40,315 bases of DNA from a virus (lineage: Duplodnaviria > Heunggongvirae > Uroviricota > Caudoviricetes): IMG/VR virus record IMGVR_UViG_2541047797_000007. One strand, 5' to 3'. A program made the translations under genes and the position numbers. Shown piece after piece: positions 2,696-33,498 of the stretch. The notes under the pieces are model-generated. The model was not told where the DNA came from and did no database searches. It worked only from the letters and a program-made list of their open reading frames with translations. The number at the start of each line of letters is the position of its first letter. The stretch's first letter is position 1.

Positions 2696-3086
2696 CGTCT
2701 TTTCTCCCCGGAATTAACTCGCGTGGATTATCGGAACGGTGATAGAGCCAGATGCCAATACGCACGGCGACAATTGCTGACACGAATGCGCCTGCAGAGA
2801 AAACAATCCCTTTTTCAAAAGAGTCCTGCGTGATGGTAGGGATCAGGCTGGCTATGCCGATAAGAATTGATGCTGCTGGTTTGTAAAAGAGAAGGCCGCA
2901 AAGAAAGCTGAGCATCGACAGGAGCACCCGGCGACGGATGGGGTACTCTACTGCAGAGGTAACAAAAATTACCGCCCCAGCCAAAGCCCCTAAAGCAACC
3001 TCCGGAGGGACACCTGCAATAACCGCAGCAAGAGAACTAACACTAAGCCACTGATTTGAAGTTTCATTGGTTAGTTGGAATGACAT
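2682..3086 (-). CDS. Holin/antiholin-like membrane protein
   Basis: 134 aa with about 4 predicted TM helices and a charged tail (RSDNPRELIPGRKDDGNA). First gene of the lysis cassette. Confidence 0.6.
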   Translation of the reverse strand: MSFQLTNETSNQWLSVSSLAAVIAGVPPEVALGALAGAVIFVTSAVEYPIRRRVLLSMLSFLCGLLFYKPAASILIGIASLIPTITQDSFEKGIVFSAGAFVSAIVAVRIGIWLYHRSDNPRELIPGRKDDGNA

Positions 3087-3158
3087 AACGAAACCCGTTT
3101 ATTTGCAAACACCCTGCTTCAGGAAAAGTATACCGCGCAACAACACACCATTTACGGT

Positions 3159-5621
3159 TCAATTCCCTGTTAATTGCAAAACTTGCTCTTCCAGCTTTTT
3201 AACCCTGCGTCTCATCATCGCAGATTCCAGAATCAGAGCCTCTTCATAACGGATACCGTAACATTCACCAGCCTCGACGGCTTCGCGTACCAGAACCTTT
3301 GTCTGTATAAGTGGGTAAACTCCTGCAGAATGCTCTTCTTCCGTCACATCCCTGTATTCTGCCGGGGTCTCATTCCACTTGTCATAACAGATAAATGCCA
3401 GTCGTGACACATCTATGCCTTCATTCTGAAATACACTGATAACATGCTGCGCAACTGCACCAAAGTGCCATCTTGCTCCGTCTTTACCTTTCACTTCGAT
3501 CCTGTCAAGGTACTGGTATGAAACCCATTCCACTCTTTCCCATGCGTCCAGTATTTTCTCATCAATAACCTCTGGAGCAGTCTTGAAACGCGCATCGGAC
3601 AGCACCGTAAACGCTGACTGGGTAAATCCCCCCGACCATGCACGACCAGCCAACCCAAGAGAATAAGTATTCGTTGTCGATGGTGTCATGGCTGAATCAG
3701 AAAACTGTATATATTCTGAATTTCCAGTAGATATTCGAATATTTCCATTTATTAGCGACATAGTGCCTTTAGTATTATCACTATTGAATAATTTCAATTG
3801 CGAACTTATACCGCCTCCCACAGCCAGAGATACATCGCCTTCAGCAAGCATTCTGAATTTATCTGCAGAAACAAGCGTCTGGTTAGCAAGGTTAAAATAT
3901 TTAACCCACCATTCAAAACGCCCTGACATAGTCCCAACGTACTGACCAAGCGCAGGGACGTGAACAACATTGCTATTTGTAGTGCCGTCTATACTGGAAA
4001 TACCAGTCACCGCTGATGCAGAACTCAGAATATTATTTCTGTCACCCGGATGTTTAATTTCAACAAAGTTCCTGATACACCCTTCCTCGAAGGTAACCAC
4101 GCCGGAAGAACTATACATGGGGAATATTGACGCATAATTACTGCGTGCAGCATCTAAGAAACGAATGGTTGTAGATGTCTGCAGATCTCCTGATTCATTT
4201 TTCCCATCACACCCAGTCATTAGAATATTACTGGCAATATTATTATTTCCCTGAACGGTGACGCCGTGCGCCTGCTTTGCGTCCGATTCAGAGTAATCAA
4301 CCAGCACATCCGAAATCAGGTTACCAGTCCCCTTGCCAACAACTACTGCGGCGTATTTTGGGTTGTTAGCCATTACACTGCTAATGATATTATTCGTTGG
4401 GGCAGTTTCCGTCTCAGTTCCATTGTAAACAACGTGCTGACACTCTTCACCAATAACATTGCTGACAATGTTATATTTTGCTGCTGTTTTAAGTTCCACT
4501 GCACCAAACTGAGGATAATTTCTGGCTATCACACCATCAATTAGCGTATTTTGCGATGAATCAAAAAGCACACAACCTGCTTTTTTATTATTTGCGAACC
4601 CTAAATACTCTCCTCTTATATCTCTAACAATGTAACCTGACGGAATACCATTATCCGGATAAGCGATCAAGCTAAATCCTGGTCCTCGCGTATTTGTAAA
4701 TCTGATATTTTTAACCGATACATCATGGCCACCTGAAAATGACACCTGGTGTCCCTGCACACTATCATCTGATTTATTTCCCATAATTGTTAGCGTACTA
4801 AGCATGCCACCATCGGGCATGTTAAAAACCAGATGATTACCATCTCTGTCATACTGTTTTATCGTTCCCCCACCTGTTCCGTACAAGCCACAACGTGAAA
4901 GAGAAACTAAAGATGTATTGAATACCCCTTCCGGAACAAAAACACTGCTAAACGAATGTAATGATTTTGTAAAAGCATCCTTGTTATCATTTAAGATTCC
5001 ATTTTGAGCTCCAAAATCCTTAATGCTGACACCATCACGCATCTTATCCTGGAACGTTCTGTATACCGCTCCAGAACCATACTGAATAAACCAACCAAAA
5101 CCACCAATAACTCCGGCGATTGCAGCATCGACATAATTACGCATTGAGCGATTATTTACAGCGTCCTGCTCAAGTGATGGATCGGCAAGGTTAGATATTC
5201 TGTTTTGCTTTGCATCGTAATATTTTGCAAGCAAAGATGGTTTCATCAATGCACGTCTGAACCACCCAAAACATCGCTGGATCAGCATCGTCAGGTAGTC
5301 AAATGCATCCTCATGAACTTCGGGGAAAAATTTTCCCTGATTGCGAAGATCAGTCTCCTGCACCACATCAAGCACACGCTCTATCGTGATTCGCCAGCCA
5401 GCAGCAAGCGGCGACGGAAGAACCACTGCACCGCCACTATAAGTTCCCGCCCCTGTTACCGTATAACCAGCATCCAGCACTAGTTTTGTAACGTTACCGT
5501 TAAGGTCAGACACCTGAACAACCAGGTCGGATTTTTTGAAAATACGGAAGGTATACGGAAATGATGTCGTAACGCCGTTACCTGTGTATTCGTTGTGGTC
5601 AACTTCGGTTGAGACCGTCAT
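3159..5621 (-). CDS. Tailspike: conserved N-terminal particle-binding domain, beta-helix body, C-terminal intramolecular chaperone (peptidase S74-like) domain
   Basis: 820 aa. The N-terminus MTVSTEVDHNEYTGNGVTTSFPYTFRIF... is the adaptor shared by epsilon15/phiV10-type tailspikes. The centre is rich in beta-helix-like repeats (NIRFTNTRGPGFS..). The last 146 aa start at S-D-A-R-F-K (nt 3162-3599), the autocleaving chaperone motif of endosialidase / T5 L-shaped fibres. Confidence 0.85.
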   Translation of the reverse strand: MTVSTEVDHNEYTGNGVTTSFPYTFRIFKKSDLVVQVSDLNGNVTKLVLDAGYTVTGAGTYSGGAVVLPSPLAAGWRITIERVLDVVQETDLRNQGKFFPEVHEDAFDYLTMLIQRCFGWFRRALMKPSLLAKYYDAKQNRISNLADPSLEQDAVNNRSMRNYVDAAIAGVIGGFGWFIQYGSGAVYRTFQDKMRDGVSIKDFGAQNGILNDNKDAFTKSLHSFSSVFVPEGVFNTSLVSLSRCGLYGTGGGTIKQYDRDGNHLVFNMPDGGMLSTLTIMGNKSDDSVQGHQVSFSGGHDVSVKNIRFTNTRGPGFSLIAYPDNGIPSGYIVRDIRGEYLGFANNKKAGCVLFDSSQNTLIDGVIARNYPQFGAVELKTAAKYNIVSNVIGEECQHVVYNGTETETAPTNNIISSVMANNPKYAAVVVGKGTGNLISDVLVDYSESDAKQAHGVTVQGNNNIASNILMTGCDGKNESGDLQTSTTIRFLDAARSNYASIFPMYSSSGVVTFEEGCIRNFVEIKHPGDRNNILSSASAVTGISSIDGTTNSNVVHVPALGQYVGTMSGRFEWWVKYFNLANQTLVSADKFRMLAEGDVSLAVGGGISSQLKLFNSDNTKGTMSLINGNIRISTGNSEYIQFSDSAMTPSTTNTYSLGLAGRAWSGGFTQSAFTVLSDARFKTAPEVIDEKILDAWERVEWVSYQYLDRIEVKGKDGARWHFGAVAQHVISVFQNEGIDVSRLAFICYDKWNETPAEYRDVTEEEHSAGVYPLIQTKVLVREAVEAGECYGIRYEEALILESAMMRRRVKKLEEQVLQLTGN

Positions 5622-5741: not shown

Positions 5742-5779
5742 TTGCAAAACGTGCTGGATAGCAAACAAATTATTTGATA

Positions 5780-5795
5780 CTGTATAAATATACAG
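5780..5795. promoter_or_regulatory. LexA (SOS) box
   Basis: taCTGTATAAATATACAGtt is a perfect CTGT-N8-ACAG with an AT-rich centre. It lies 22 nt upstream of ATG 5818. Confidence 0.8.
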
Positions 5796-5817
5796 TTATT
5801 GCATGGAGAAGATTAAG

Positions 5818-6075
5818 ATGCAGCAGTATCACTATCCACTGGAAGAGGGATTTACCGAAAGGATTCACACGCCGGGAGGCGTCAGGTCACTGGTGGAGGG
5901 ATCGCACTTGATGAAATTACTCCGGGATCTCGATAAGGATGGATTTAATGTCGATGGCCCACTTGCCGAACTGACTGCACTGATTAACTACGTCACCAGC
6001 TCACAGATGTCTATGCAGGATCTGCAAACACATCTCGACTATTGTGCCGAACAATTACGAAAACAAACCAGATAA
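5818..6075 (+). CDS. Small SOS-controlled antirepressor candidate (paralog of the Ant C-terminal domain)
   Basis: 85 aa from the second ATG of ORF 5803..6075 (SD GGAG 5806-5809, 8-nt spacing). About 40% identical over about 77 aa to the C-terminus of the 218-aa antirepressor (shared PL..G...IH.P.GV..L.E.S.LM.LL..L..DG..V.G..AELT......Y........D.QTH..Y). A LexA box lies directly upstream. Confidence 0.7.
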   Translation: MQQYHYPLEEGFTERIHTPGGVRSLVEGSHLMKLLRDLDKDGFNVDGPLAELTALINYVTSSQMSMQDLQTHLDYCAEQLRKQTR

Positions 6076-6078
6076 GGT

Positions 6079-6107
6079 TTGCAATTACCAAATGGAGTGC
6101 TTATATT
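6079..6107 (+). promoter_or_regulatory. Sigma70-type promoter of the c4-like RNA/ant unit
   Basis: TTGCAA (6079-6084), 17-nt spacer, TATATT (6102-6107). The predicted +1 falls inside operator 6106-6122. Confidence 0.65.
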
Positions 6108-6122
6108 TACCTTTGCGGTAAA
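6106..6122. promoter_or_regulatory. 17-bp operator-like palindrome TTTACCTTTGCGGTAAA
   Basis: TTACC-N5-GGTAA dyad overlapping the -10/+1 of the promoter at 6079-6107. Confidence 0.65.
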
Positions 6123-6211
6123 TTTACATCGCACTCCTCTTGTGCCATAGTAATCGGGCACTGGCAAAATCCAGTGCCGGGATTGGTCTCCCGGATTACT
6201 AAGTGGCGCAT

Positions 6212-6234
6212 ACCACGCCAGACGTGGTTTTTTT
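6212..6234 (+). terminator. Intrinsic terminator/attenuator inside the ant leader
   Basis: Stem ACCACG (6212-6217) / CGTGGT (6223-6228) with loop CCAGA, followed by a run of 7 T (6228-6234). An alternative helix 6204-6208 : 6216-6220 competes with it. Confidence 0.6.
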
Positions 6235-6264
6235 ATGCGTATAGCACAGTCATGCCAGAATTAT

Positions 6265-6340
6265 GGTGGGCTGAATGGGGGTCCGAAAGGACGCCGGTAC
6301 CACTTAGGCCGGTAAGACCAACTCCGTTCAGTTCACCACC
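6265..6340 (+). ncRNA. c4-like antisense RNA (P1/P7 immI type) controlling the antirepressor gene
   Basis: 76-nt multi-helix element. Closing helices are 6265-6269:6336-6340 and 6271-6278:6324-6331. Inside are a GTCC-GAAA-GGAC hairpin (6281-6292) and a CCGG hairpin with an 11-nt loop (6294-6312). Loop CCACTTAG (6300-6307) and single-stranded AGACCAA (6315-6321) are complementary to CTAAGTGG/TTGGTCT boxes found both upstream (6199-6206 / 6183-6189) and downstream (6375-6382 / 6347-6353, overlapping the ant SD). No credible ORF. Confidence 0.65.
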
Positions 6341-6392
6341 ATCTGATTGGTCTCAGCGGTGGTGATGTAATTCGCTAAGTGGAGACGCCATC

Positions 6393-7049
6393 ATGAACGC
6401 TCAACTCATCCCCGTATTCAACGGCACTATATCTAACGAAACAGCCCTACTTTGTAATGCCCGCGATCTGCACGCTTTTTTAGGTGTTAAAAAGGTGTTT
6501 GCAGCATGGATTACAAATCGCATATCAGAATACGAATTCATTGAAAATCAAGACTATATTTTGCTTTCCAATTTGGGAAAGCAAACATCTGGTAGAGGCG
6601 GCCACAACCGCAAAGAGTACCACCTCACCCTTGATACAGCCAAAGAGCTGGCGATGGTCGAGCGTAACGAAAAAGGTCGTCAGGTACGACGCTACTTCAT
6701 TGAATGCGAGAAACGTTTAAGACAACAAGAAACAAAAGTGGAGAAGGTCTTGTCAGGCTTCATGCCCGCCATTATGGAGGCGATCAAGCTGGAAGACAAA
6801 AAAGAATACAGTGCCCCGCTGAAGCCCGGCTACCGCAGCCTGATTCATTCGCCGTCTGGTGTTCTCGGCCTGACGGAGAACTCACTGCTGATGAATCTGC
6901 TGAACCAGTTACAGGAAGACGGGCACGACGTATCGGGCGCGGCGGCGGAACTGACCACCATGTTCTGCTACATCGTCGGTGTGAGCAAATGCCTGCGTGA
7001 TATCCAGACCCACGCGGAGTACATCAACGACAAGGCAGGGTTCTTCTGA
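6393..7049 (+). CDS. ant: Antirepressor, AntA/AntB-type N-terminal domain plus C-terminal domain shared with the 85-aa protein
   Basis: 218 aa. The N-terminal 110 aa match the AntA/AntB pattern (ARDLH.FL.V...F..WI..RI..Y.F.E..DY........GG.....[12 protein letters not shown]....G...R.YFIE.E). SD GGAG 6381-6384. Terminator downstream. Confidence 0.8.
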
Positions 7050-7093: not shown

Positions 7094-7239
7094 TTGCAGA
7101 CAGGGGGGTGAATAGAGTACTATTACCTTACGGGTGATCCATAGCGATTAGGCACCGATACAGGAGGAGCCCACATGAGAAAATTTGACGAGTACGAAGG
7201 CGTTTAACATTCGGATAGTTCATTTACCCTAATGGTAAA
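7094..7239 (+). promoter_or_regulatory. Promoter/operator region of the 211-aa orphan gene (two operator palindromes)
   Basis: TTGCAG (7094-7099), 18-nt spacer, TACTAT (7118-7123). Operator ATTACCTTACGGGTGAT (7122-7138) overlaps the -10/+1. A second operator TTTACCCTAATGGTAAA sits at 7223-7239. A 10-codon mini-ORF with a strong SD lies between them. Confidence 0.55.
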
Positions 7240-7278: not shown

Positions 7279-7914
7279 ATGCCACAACAACTGCTGAATC
7301 CGGCAAAGGTAACTGAGGTTTTCGCTCATCTGAACGAAACTCCAGACAACCGCGCCCTGTATTCAGAGTTAGTGAACGGCAACGATGTCACATCTGATGT
7401 CAAAGGCGTTTCTCTGGCTCCTGGATACCGCGTTGTCCGTGTAGACGATCGTAAGAAAGGCGAGATTCCACAGGCGCACTTTGAACTGTCATTGATAAAT
7501 GACCTCACCGAAGAGGTAGTGTATTACAATCGTGTCATTATCCAGCCTGACAGCTATCTTAACTGCCGTCCTGTCACGCAGATATTGGTATGGAGAACCC
7601 AGAAGCCTAAGCATCGTGCTGTGCTTCATGATTTCGCCGGCATCATCTTCATGAACTACCTCTTGGAACGGTACGATATCATCGTGTCAGATCGCAACCA
7701 GACTCATGAAGGCATGTCGTTCTGGCAGGCTCGCATGTATGACGCACTGGAACTTGGCCTCCACCTCTATGGTTACGACATGATGACATGCGAGCTGATA
7801 GAGATGAATAACGAGGAAGAGCTTGAGAAAGGTGAAACCTGGTTGTGGGGTGATGCGGAAAACTTCCAAAACAGATTGGCCATAATTTCAAAGCATAAGC
7901 TGCCAATAAAATAG
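7279..7914 (+). CDS. Hypothetical protein, 211 aa, accessory (moron-like) cassette
   Basis: Clean ORF with SD GAGGTGA (7270-7276) upstream of ATG 7279, its own promoter/operators and its own terminator. I recognise no motif. Confidence 0.8.
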   Translation: MPQQLLNPAKVTEVFAHLNETPDNRALYSELVNGNDVTSDVKGVSLAPGYRVVRVDDRKKGEIPQAHFELSLINDLTEEVVYYNRVIIQPDSYLNCRPVTQILVWRTQKPKHRAVLHDFAGIIFMNYLLERYDIIVSDRNQTHEGMSFWQARMYDALELGLHLYGYDMMTCELIEMNNEEELEKGETWLWGDAENFQNRLAIISKHKLPIK

Positions 7915-32528: not shown

Positions 32529-32759
32529 TCATGAGTAGAAGAAGTATGCCAGTTCTGCTTTTGAGCGCAGCCATTGTCTTGTTTTACAGGCTTTAAAAAG
32601 CCCATTCATCAATACCTTACCTGGCATTTTGCGCTTACCTGTTAAGTGAGTCTGGATATAGTGACTCGTCGTTCCGGCTTCCTGTGCGAAGGCTTCACGC
32701 TCATCCGGAGTAAGTGCAAGCCAGTGCTTTTTGAAATCGAAATGTCCGTTATCGCTCAT
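32529..32759 (-). CDS. Cro-like HTH regulator, first gene of the early-right operon
   Basis: 76 aa. HTH-like EAFAQEAGTTSHYIQTHLTG. Divergent from the repressor gene across the tripartite operator. Confidence 0.65.
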   Translation of the reverse strand: MSDNGHFDFKKHWLALTPDEREAFAQEAGTTSHYIQTHLTGKRKMPGKVLMNGLFKACKTRQWLRSKAELAYFFYS

Positions 32760-32794
32760 AGCTATTGCCTGATATTTATTTCAGATAATAAATA

Positions 32795-32859
32795 TTCACC
32801 CATAAGGTAACAAAAATCAAGGATAGTTACCTATGGGGTGCATTTACCTATTGGGTAAT
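32795..32859. promoter_or_regulatory. Tripartite operator between the cro-like and repressor genes
   Basis: TTCACCCATAAGGTAAC (32795-32811), GTTACCTATGGGGTGCA (32826-32842) and TTTACCTATTGGGTAAT (32843-32859). A minus-strand promoter TTGATT-17-GAATAT brackets the first site. Confidence 0.7.
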
Positions 32860-32913
32860 ATTGCTTTAAATTGAATCATCTACTGATTCATATATGAGGC
32901 GATTTTCCAGAAA

Positions 32914-33498
32914 ATGAAAAGTATCCAGGACGTCCGCAGGCAAAATCTCAACGACTTGATCGACCGTGAATTCAATGGTGTTCAGACGCGGATGGCAGAA
33001 AAACTTGGAACTCAGGCAAATCTGGTAAACCGCTGGGCTCTTGGCAAGAAGGTTATCGGCGACCAGGTTGCGCGAAAAATTGAAGCTGCCGCCAATAAAC
33101 CCCGTAACTGGCTTGATATCGATCGCTCGCTTTCTCAGGAAGGTTTTCAGCCTGTCGGCCCAAGCGACATTGGTCAGCTGGCGGCTCACAACCTAGAACG
33201 CTGGATGAGCGAAAGCCGCGACCTTTCAACGCAGGGAAAACTTCACCGCGCATCCGGCGTCGCCCAGGTGACAATCAGCCGCCTGTTAAACAATGAGGTC
33301 AGTGTTTCCATTTCCACCCTGGAGAATGTTGCATCCGCATTCGGGCGTCACGGCTATGAATTACTGATTCACCCGCACGACCCTGCGACCATCAACTATG
33401 ACCGCTCGCGCTACGCATTGTTACCTGAAACAGAGAAGGCAAAGATCGAAAGTTACATTGAATTTGTCATCAGCCAGAACGAAAAAAACAAACAATAA
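32914..33498 (+). CDS. Prophage repressor with two tandem XRE/CI-type HTH domains and no S24 peptidase domain
   Basis: 194 aa. HTH 1 is QTRMAEKLGTQANLVNRWALGKK. HTH 2 is GKLHRASGVAQVTISRLLNNEVS. No Ala-Gly/Ser-Lys autocleavage module. Divergent from the cro-like gene. Terminator downstream. Confidence 0.75.
   Translation: MKSIQDVRRQNLNDLIDREFNGVQTRMAEKLGTQANLVNRWALGKKVIGDQVARKIEAAANKPRNWLDIDRSLSQEGFQPVGPSDIGQLAAHNLERWMSESRDLSTQGKLHRASGVAQVTISRLLNNEVSVSISTLENVASAFGRHGYELLIHPHDPATINYDRSRYALLPETEKAKIESYIEFVISQNEKNKQ

Follow-up and report, generated by a model that had tools for sequence, protein, structure and literature searches.

The antirepressor gene and its leader

The viral record IMGVR_UViG_2541047797_000007 of IMG/VR (40,315 nucleotides (nt); this whole 40.3-kb stretch is referred to below as the window) is, to judge by its sequence, a prophage of the genus Uetakevirus (epsilon15/phiV10-like podoviruses) of Escherichia coli. 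Its plus strand carries an antirepressor gene, ant (nt 6393 – 7049), the 218 amino acid (aa) product of which belongs to the AntA family (Pfam AntA PF08346, E = 4e-26; phrog_377, 'anti-repressor Ant', E = 3e-66), and the homologue of which is named 'phage antirepressor Ant' in RefSeq. The stretch directly upstream (nt 6076 – 6392) had been described in an initial annotation, made from the letters alone, as lacking a credible open reading frame (ORF) and as carrying a P1 c4-type antisense RNA module with the layout a1-b1 / b'-a' / a2-b2. Nothing credible was found to be encoded within these limits, and the layout ahead of ant is supported by covariance models, by co-variation of the boxes and by the geometry of the P1 locus. 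On these grounds the stretch almost certainly holds an intact, functional isrK + C4 (P1 immI-type) module, of a family that is well populated.

A covariance-model search had been suggested as a check, and its outcome is positive. When the whole window was searched with the Rfam models at their gathering thresholds it matched exactly two families, both on the plus strand within this leader and both over the full length of the model. The first, isrK (RF01394), an IsrK-type leader or short small RNA (sRNA) of 77 nt, spans nt 6158 – 6234 (67.7 bits relative to a gathering threshold of 50; model positions 1 – 77), and the second, the C4 antisense RNA (RF01695) gene, spans nt 6259 – 6343 (61.2 bits relative to 45; model positions 1 – 87). 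Weak matches to snoRNA families, RsmV and WsnRNA46 (E values from 0.24 to 8.6) were dismissed as chance.

The two RNAs and the start of ant are connected by short complementary boxes on the plus strand. The isrK leader displays a1 (TTGGTCT, nt 6183 – 6189) in the loop of its second hairpin, followed by b1 (CTAAGTGG, nt 6199 – 6206). Within C4, b' (CCACTTAG, nt 6300 – 6307) occupies the loop of a hairpin (nt 6293 – 6313) and a' (AGACCAA, nt 6315 – 6321) is single-stranded. Further downstream are a2 (TTGGTCT, nt 6347 – 6353), again in a hairpin loop, and the b2 target (nt 6375 – 6382), which overlaps the ant Shine-Dalgarno sequence GGAG (nt 6381 – 6384) and starts 18 nt before the ant start codon (ATG at nt 6393). 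All four types of box, as well as the GGAG and the ATG, lie where they had been placed from inspection alone. In the window, TTGGTCT and CTAAGTGG occur twice each, only at a1/a2 and b1/b2, and by simple arithmetic the chance expectation for four such matches, in this order and within about 200 nt, is roughly 1e-9.

A 107-aa ORF with a TTG start (nt 6042 – 6365) was rejected as a gene, as it begins inside the preceding gene, crosses the promoters, the terminator and C4, and has no family support. There is an AUG at the 5' end of C4 (nt 6263), but it reads ATG GTG GGC TGA and stops after 3 codons, and no ORF in the right frame spans nt 6263 – 6392. An icd-like small ORF is likewise absent between b2 and ant, which begins at nt 6393 straight after b2.

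Predicted structure of the two RNAs

The IsrK-type leader consists of two 5' hairpins, followed by b1 and then by an intrinsic terminator, which a terminator scan predicts as a stem at nt 6212 – 6228 with a run of seven T to nt 6234. Predicted termination there would give an RNA of 77 nt (nt 6158 – 6234), the length of an isrK RNA. The leader is more stably folded than shuffled sequences (nt 6115 – 6234, z = -6.1), and the same is true of the 77-nt RNA at nt 6265 – 6341, which has a minimum free energy (MFE) of -40.7 kcal/mol (z = -5.15 relative to shuffles) and adopts the consensus fold of the C4 family, with a GUCC-GAAA-GGAC hairpin at nt 6281 – 6292 followed by the b'-bearing hairpin. From alignment to the annotated c4 of P1, the mature RNA is predicted to comprise nt 6265 – 6340/41. 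The initial annotation had recognised a 76-nt element of this shape; its description of the fold stands, except that the closing stem is continuous over 17 bp (nt 6264 – 6280 with 6322 – 6338, in the register of both Rfam and RNAfold), and its outer 5 bp had been shifted by 3.

A CACCACC/GGTGGTG hairpin with a2 in its loop had also been noticed, and can now be specified as an alternative hairpin at nt 6334 – 6364, with arms at nt 6334 – 6340 and 6358 – 6364 and an additional helix of nt 6343 – 6345 with 6354 – 6356. For its 5' arm it uses the 3' strand of the closing stem of C4, and since the two helices share one strand they are mutually exclusive. Among relatives, the same positions co-vary in both alternative helices (e.g. 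CGCCACC with GGTGGCG alongside ATGGCGGG), and P1 (L204, about nt 3410 – 3447) has a matching a2 hairpin that shares the 3' strand of its C4 stem. The a2 hairpin and the C4 stem may constitute a structural switch coupled to processing: because the hairpin borrows a strand of the stem, maturation of C4 and exposure of its target may, on the folding model, go together.

Co-variation of the boxes among relatives

Relatives were collected with an IMG/VR pattern search built from the isrK hairpins, which returned at least 120 stretches; the counts given for the family here and below are counts among the matches listed. Combined with loci found through ant, these matches gave 119 distinct leaders, of which 117 were parsed. 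Their a boxes fall into four types (TTGGCGT, TTGGTCT, TTGGAAC and TTGGCAT), and in 114 of the 117 leaders one and the same sequence recurs as a1, as a2 and as the complement of a'; the other three look like recombinants. Pairing was counted in an alignment of 50 sequences, and the covariation score was compared with those of shuffles, none of which reached the observed value. Pairing amounts to 99.1% in the a'-a2 helix and to 99.4% in the a1-a' helix, with 3 positions in each that have changed on both sides; the corresponding figures are 99.6% and 8 positions for the C4 closing stem, and 99.4% and 5 positions for the first isrK hairpin. In the alternative hairpin around a2 pairing reaches 91%, and 5 pairs have changed on both sides.

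The b loops are hypervariable (60 distinct b' regions), and because MAFFT lost their register the column pair counts were not used; the b boxes were tested instead by comparing self with non-self complementarity. A perfect complement to b' of at least 7 nt is found in the locus's own b2 in 82% of cases, compared with 4.9% for the b2 of other loci, and the same test on b1 gives 57% for the own locus and 3.6% for others. Compensatory changes in relatives had been proposed as a further check of the module, and both the a'/a and the b'/b boxes do co-vary with their targets.

The two kinds of box assort independently in several family members (L178, L102, L183 and L165). In L178, for example, a1 is TTGGTCT while a' and a2 are of the TTGGAAC type, so that a1 does not match a', and in L183 the b boxes of the window are combined with another type of a box. 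Such chimeric loci imply, at the level of sequence, recombination between leader and C4 and a combinatorial specificity code. Four a types and dozens of b types would then form a two-key immunity code, with possible cross-talk among co-resident prophages. Close relatives of this prophage (L006, nt 5010 – 5191 on the minus strand; also L009, L019 and L031) carry a second isrK-C4 module about 2.5 kb from the first and on the opposite strand, ahead of a Bro-N-type gene, with the same TTGGTCT a boxes but other b boxes (CTACAAAGG); a single module is present in the window.

In the family the end of b2 mostly lies 7 – 12 nt ahead of the ATG. Among 51 box types, an antirepressor-type gene of 168 – 255 aa (AntA, Bro-N or Rha-like) stands directly after b2 in 34 complete and 5 truncated cases, and an icd-like ORF of 57 – 81 aa in about 11. 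The absence of an icd gene, which had been pointed out for this locus, is therefore real but is the rule, being the commonest layout of the family.

Distribution and annotation

Over the 1.4 kb around the RNA locus the nearest relative is Escherichia phage phiv142-3 (98.4% identity), and phiV10, ZX5, TL-2011b and other Uetakevirus phages share 89 – 94% identity over 65 – 71% of this length. These matches, together with the gene order, show that the label of podoviral prophage given to the window from its sequence was correct. Of 5426 complete E. coli genomes, 467 (about 9%) contain the leader with an identity of at least 80%, and that of E. coli IAI39 is 99.7% identical.

That the module is a decayed, non-functional remnant carried along with ant appears highly improbable. 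Nothing specific favours it beyond the lack of annotation: RefSeq E. coli genomes have only the flanking coding sequences at this locus, no RNA feature is given there in the GenBank phage records (phiv142-3, phiV10), and the phiV10 record shows only a terminator and a spurious protein similarity. Against it, none of the six boxes has a mismatch, no helix is broken, the leader is at least 99% identical in 70 E. coli records, and it is present in the viable phages phiv142-3, phiV10 and ZX5.

Promoters and operator

Two tandem promoters are predicted on the plus strand ahead of the isrK leader. The initial annotation had reported a near-consensus sigma-70-like promoter, TTGCAA-17-TATATT (nt 6079 – 6107). 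This site exists (9/12 consensus matches) and is retained in Uetakevirus relatives though not across the wider family, but it is probably only the distal one of the pair. The family-conserved proximal promoter, TTTACA-17-CATAGT with an extended -10 (TGn), had been missed; it lies at nt 6123 – 6151, has a predicted start near nt 6158 and aligns column for column with P51b of P1. In 95 distinct family upstream regions, in which positions were counted from isrK position 1, an A at -11 and a T at -7 are invariant and a T at -35 is found in 93. Since the promoter positions of the family register on isrK position 1, the conserved start is placed at nt 6158, which fits the 77-nt IsrK measured in the Salmonella prophage Gifsy-1 (PMC4825925). 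The proximal promoter also occupies the position of the Gifsy-1 isrK promoter.

An operator over the distal -10/+1 had been proposed as well, and the motif is present at that place. The palindrome ATTTACC-TTTGC-GGTAAAT (nt 6105 – 6123), with the core TTACCTTTGCGGTAA (TTACC-N5-GGTAA, nt 6107 – 6121), shares nucleotides with the distal -10/+1 and borders on the proximal -35. It is placed between the promoters, with its centre about 44 bp ahead of the proximal start. With up to one mismatch allowed, TTACC-N5-GGTAA occurs 14 times in the window (at nt 5494, 5726, 6107, 7123, 7224, 24569, 27207, 27225, 30451, 30513, 32796, 32844, 33556 and 33618) relative to 0.62 expected. One pair (32796 and 32844) is located between the cro-like and repressor genes and another (33556 and 33618) downstream of the repressor gene. 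Because of the number of copies and of these pairs flanking the repressor gene, the palindrome is taken as a putative operator of the primary helix-turn-helix (HTH) repressor (194 aa, nt 32914 – 33498), one of a prophage-wide set that would include immC. Many copies are paired ahead of operons throughout the prophage, a multi-operator regulon that recalls the scattered C1 operators of P1. Of the 95 family upstream regions, 28 contain the motif. An operator centred near -44 could leave transcription of c4 on in lysogens, or even stimulate it, while silencing the distal promoter.

Comparison with immunity regions of other phages

One of the closest described counterparts is the immI region of P1 and P7. 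In the P1 record, Op51, P51a, P51b, a1, b1, c4 (77 nt), a2, b2, icd and ant1/2 are annotated, and the order of elements is identical in the window, where a tandem of promoters and a putative operator of the primary repressor are again found. The distal promoter of the window corresponds approximately in position to P51a/P2c4, the proximal one is homologous to P51b/P1c4, and putative control by the primary repressor parallels that of C1 at Op51. Both loci share the C4 fold with b' in a hairpin loop and a' in the joining strand, a terminator-like hairpin and U run after b1, and an alternative hairpin around a2. From a2 to b2 there are 29 nt in P1 compared with 28 nt in the window, and in each case the first start codon, that of icd in P1 and of ant in the window, follows the start of b2 by 18 nt; ant thus sits where P1 has icd. 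The differences are that the first gene after b2 is ant rather than icd, that the antirepressor is of the AntA family, that a 40-kb integrating podovirus is compared with a plasmid myovirus, and that the sequences of the boxes and of the operator motif are unrelated. Searched with Rfam in the same way, the P1 locus gave 68.8 bits for C4 and, over its a1-b1 leader, 51.0 bits for c4-a1b1 and 35.1 bits for isrK, the last compared with 67.7 bits in the window. Since the P1 leader matches both models, isrK and c4-a1b1 can be read as descriptions of one element, an a1/b1 leader ending in a terminator hairpin. The motifs 'c4 antisense RNA' and 'c4-a1b1' were described from Proteobacteria and phages by Weinberg et al. 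(2010), and the C4 RNA of P1 and P7 is a known substrate of RNase P (PMC2190699).

The initial annotation had supposed that a phage with two immunity regions was undescribed among podoviruses. This does not hold, because of the precedents of P22 and of the APSE phages. Phage P22 is the classic podovirus with immC plus immI (mnt-arc-ant, with the ribbon-helix-helix repressors Arc and Mnt), and its ant is controlled by the sar antisense RNA. As in the window, the second immunity region of P22 lies next to a tailspike gene, and the antirepressor is held by a repressor-controlled promoter together with a small antisense RNA on the ant ribosome-binding site. The two systems are, however, analogous and not homologous; sar comes from the opposite strand of the arc-ant junction. 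PMC12197685 cites the P22 sar papers. In APSE (P22-like podoviruses of Hamiltonella), isrK and C4 are already annotated (LR794147 and LR794151), upstream of a Bro-N/antirepressor-type gene and with putative a' and b', and the pair has been discussed by Rouil et al. 2020 (bioRxiv 10.1101/2020.03.17.996009). Identity over the RNA region is about 72%, and the genus, the host and the downstream gene differ. The architecture found here is, then, not unusual; the locus is unannotated so far but is found by a routine Rfam scan.

For Uetakevirus itself, the antirepressor of ZX5, which has the same genome position, pushes the phage towards lysis when overexpressed, and no RNA was noted at the locus in that study (PMC9782041). 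No papers mentioning the RNA module in this genus were found.

Another relative of the leader is the isrK-orf45-anrP locus of Gifsy-1, in which a terminated 77-nt IsrK and a complementary processed RNA of about 80 nt, STnc1160, are made (Hershko-Shalev et al. 2016, PMC4825925). Supplied in trans, IsrK raises translation of the antirepressor 140-fold (PMC4825925), and both RNAs are expressed and abundant in lysogens (10.1101/787010). The window resembles this locus in its isrK match and in the predicted succession of a 77-nt terminated leader, a complementary processed RNA of about 80 nt and an antirepressor gene. It differs in that orf45 is absent, and as the ORF at the C4 5' AUG has only 3 codons, translational coupling of the Gifsy-1 kind cannot apply.

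Proposed control of ant

Taken together, the evidence makes it probable that secondary immunity (of immI type) in this Uetakevirus prophage is controlled by the locus, a member of the isrK + C4 family. Transcription would start mainly at the proximal promoter (near nt 6158), with a contribution of the distal promoter that would be silenced when the prophage repressor occupies the operator at nt 6105 – 6123. Most transcripts would end at the terminator (nt 6212 – 6234), giving the 77-nt IsrK-like RNA that displays a1 and b1, whereas the read-through RNA would contain C4, to be excised as a tRNA-like RNA of about 76 nt, the 5' end of which would be made by RNase P as in P1. The b' loop and the a' strand of C4 would then pair with b2 and a2 of the ant leader, covering the ant ribosome-binding site and blocking the 30S subunit. 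Ant would not be made, and it is proposed that the prophage repressor would therefore stay active. The a1/b1 copies would compete for the same faces of C4, be it in cis or as part of the terminated IsrK-like RNA, and this competition would adjust the block or lift it, in the way that IsrK acts on AnrP in Gifsy-1. The sequences of the boxes would set specificity, i.e. heteroimmunity. We infer the regulation of ant by C4 from homologues, as we do the start, the partial termination, the excision, the pairing and the competition by a1/b1.

Several observations weigh against this scheme. The c4-a1b1 model (RF03163) scores 39.9 bits at nt 6145 – 6197, below its gathering threshold of 46.7, b2 covers only 2 nt of the GGAG, and the predicted duplexes between C4 and its targets are short (-12.4 and -9.2 kcal/mol). 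In RNAcofold each RNA keeps its own fold and no intermolecular pairing is predicted, although loop-loop contacts are outside the model and the result is uninformative rather than negative. In the MFE fold of nt 6158 – 6420, a1 is joined in cis to a' and b1 to b', so the full-length leader is predicted to be folded upon itself, with a2 in the loop of the alternative hairpin, and unprocessed transcripts may differ in behaviour from the mature RNA. Finally, mutations in a1 of Gifsy-1 in cis raised, and did not lower, translation of the antirepressor (PMC4825925), hence the role of a1/b1 would be more than that of a simple decoy. With duplexfold, C4 and the ant leader gave -40.7 kcal/mol as compared with -34 +/- 5 for shuffled leaders, which is no useful signal; kissing contacts are outside this model also.

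The predicted cis pairing is what would be expected of a purely cis-acting leader of the kind described for Gifsy-1 ('structure A/B'), in which pairing of a1b1 with b'a' inside one transcript would trap it in an inactive fold and the terminated IsrK-like RNA would serve as a trans activator of ant, with no processed C4 repressor involved. The Gifsy-1 genetics were read in this way by their authors (PMC4825925). The window, however, has no orf45-like ORF to provide coupling, the duplicated a2/b2 boxes and their co-variation would be left unexplained, and stable processed RNAs are known, of about 80 nt in Gifsy-1 (PMC4825925) and of 77 nt in P1. This account is judged quite improbable for the present locus.

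The position of a1 and b1 immediately upstream of a strong intrinsic terminator raises a different prospect, modelled on P4: by base-pairing with a1/b1 of the leader as it is being transcribed, C4 would cause termination at nt 6212 – 6234, so that transcription into C4-ant would be self-limiting and occlusion of b2 secondary. The CI RNA of P4 (seqA/seqC) is similarly an immunity RNA processed from the leader of its own operon, with target copies up- and downstream. It differs in acting by transcription termination and in controlling replication genes, and the Rfam scans of the window gave no match relating it to a P4 family. Conservation and co-variation of a1/b1, which equal those of a2/b2, speak for such a mechanism, as does the terminator-like hairpin and U run after b1 in P1; the Gifsy-1 authors, whose paper makes no mention of P1 c4 (zero occurrences of 'phage P1'), themselves drew the comparison with P4 CI RNA and its seqA/seqC (PMC4825925). 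On the other hand, b2 sits at the ribosome-binding site in almost every member of the family, which would be needless for control of termination, and in Gifsy-1 constitutive STnc1160 did not relieve the growth arrest caused by IsrK, the arrest being more pronounced (PMC4825925). Termination control as the primary function is accordingly regarded as unlikely, though less so than an exclusively cis-acting leader, and occlusion of the ant ribosome-binding site by C4 is preferred.

Neighbouring genes of the prophage

Upstream of the module are a tail-fibre/endosialidase-type gene (nt 3159 – 5621, minus strand) and, immediately before the non-coding stretch, a 90-aa ORF (nt 5803 – 6075, plus strand). 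The latter is preceded by a near-consensus LexA box with 2 mismatches (TACTGTATAAATATACAGTT, nt 5778 – 5797), and its product shares 42% identity (E = 2e-17) with the C-terminal domain of Ant (residues 128 – 210). Directly downstream of ant is a 211-aa ORF of unknown function (phrog_1349, nt 7279 – 7914, plus strand), ahead of which two of the operator copies lie (nt 7123 – 7238); by this arrangement it is a further repressor-controlled gene of the immI-like region. Beyond it the minus strand encodes large virion genes. The cro-like and repressor genes occupy nt 32529 – 33498, and the integrase gene is at the right end of the window.

The prophage repressor has HTH domains, and an S24 peptidase domain was not found in it. 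This, together with the LexA box and the similarity of the 90-aa product to the C-terminus of Ant, suggests SOS induction via a small LexA-controlled antirepressor, as in the Gifsy phages or with Tum of phage 186, beside the c4-controlled Ant. A LexA-controlled homologue of the Ant C-terminus next to ant would point to induction through antirepressors and not through cleavage of the repressor.

The wider family

One relative (L171) has, at nt 2985 – 3122 (C4 match at nt 2981 – 3066), an ORF of exactly 45 codons that begins at the conserved C4 5' AUG, reads across a2/b2 and ends in an AUGA that it shares with the start of the antirepressor gene. Its a1, UUGGCAU, is like that of the Rfam isrK consensus, and L171 was considered as Gifsy-1 itself, but megablast against the phage collection was empty and the locus is GC-rich, so it is taken only as a relative with an orf45-like ORF. 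From the sequences it appears that orf45 of Gifsy-1 coincides with the c4 RNA gene and that STnc1160 would be C4. On this view a single widespread immI-type module would comprise both, Salmonella IsrK as its a1b1 leader and orf45/STnc1160 as its c4 RNA, and IsrK would act as an anti-antisense decoy for C4.

In 14 of 20 ant-homologue loci that were scanned, the RNA directly upstream of ant is not C4 but sRNA-Xcc1 (RF02221), for example in L020 (nt 2370 – 2459), L038 (nt 2373 – 2461), L057 (nt 2381 – 2465), L065 (nt 2384 – 2467), L069 (nt 2372 – 2460) and others. These RNAs have two internal boxes that vary by locus (e.g. CTTTGAAG; CTTTGCA and GTGTTCA; CCTCACTGA and TTTCGAA). Exact complements of the boxes are found both in a terminated leader further upstream and across the ant Shine-Dalgarno sequence. 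Judged by this arrangement, sRNA-Xcc1 looks like an unrecognised c4 analogue, and would be a second family of c4-like immunity RNAs; no papers linking it to c4 were found. In one viral contig (L076) a group II intron (Rfam D1 – D4 and domain V/VI matches, nt 3246 – 3532 and 4904 – 4976) is located just downstream of an ant homologue.

A joint picture, in which IsrK/STnc1160 equals a1b1/c4, the a and b boxes form a two-key code, sRNA-Xcc1 is a second c4-like family and the operator spares or stimulates the proximal promoter, is put forward tentatively, and may well not hold in all its parts.

For the prophages that carry this locus, adding the isrK and C4 features to their annotation would explain the silence of ant, and epsilon15/phiV10-like phages would be seen to use a P1-style RNA layer atop a multi-operator repressor. 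The locus leaves c4-type control as it is known unchanged; new insight might lie in the wider family, in the link between IsrK and c4, the combinations of boxes and the sRNA-Xcc1 analogue.

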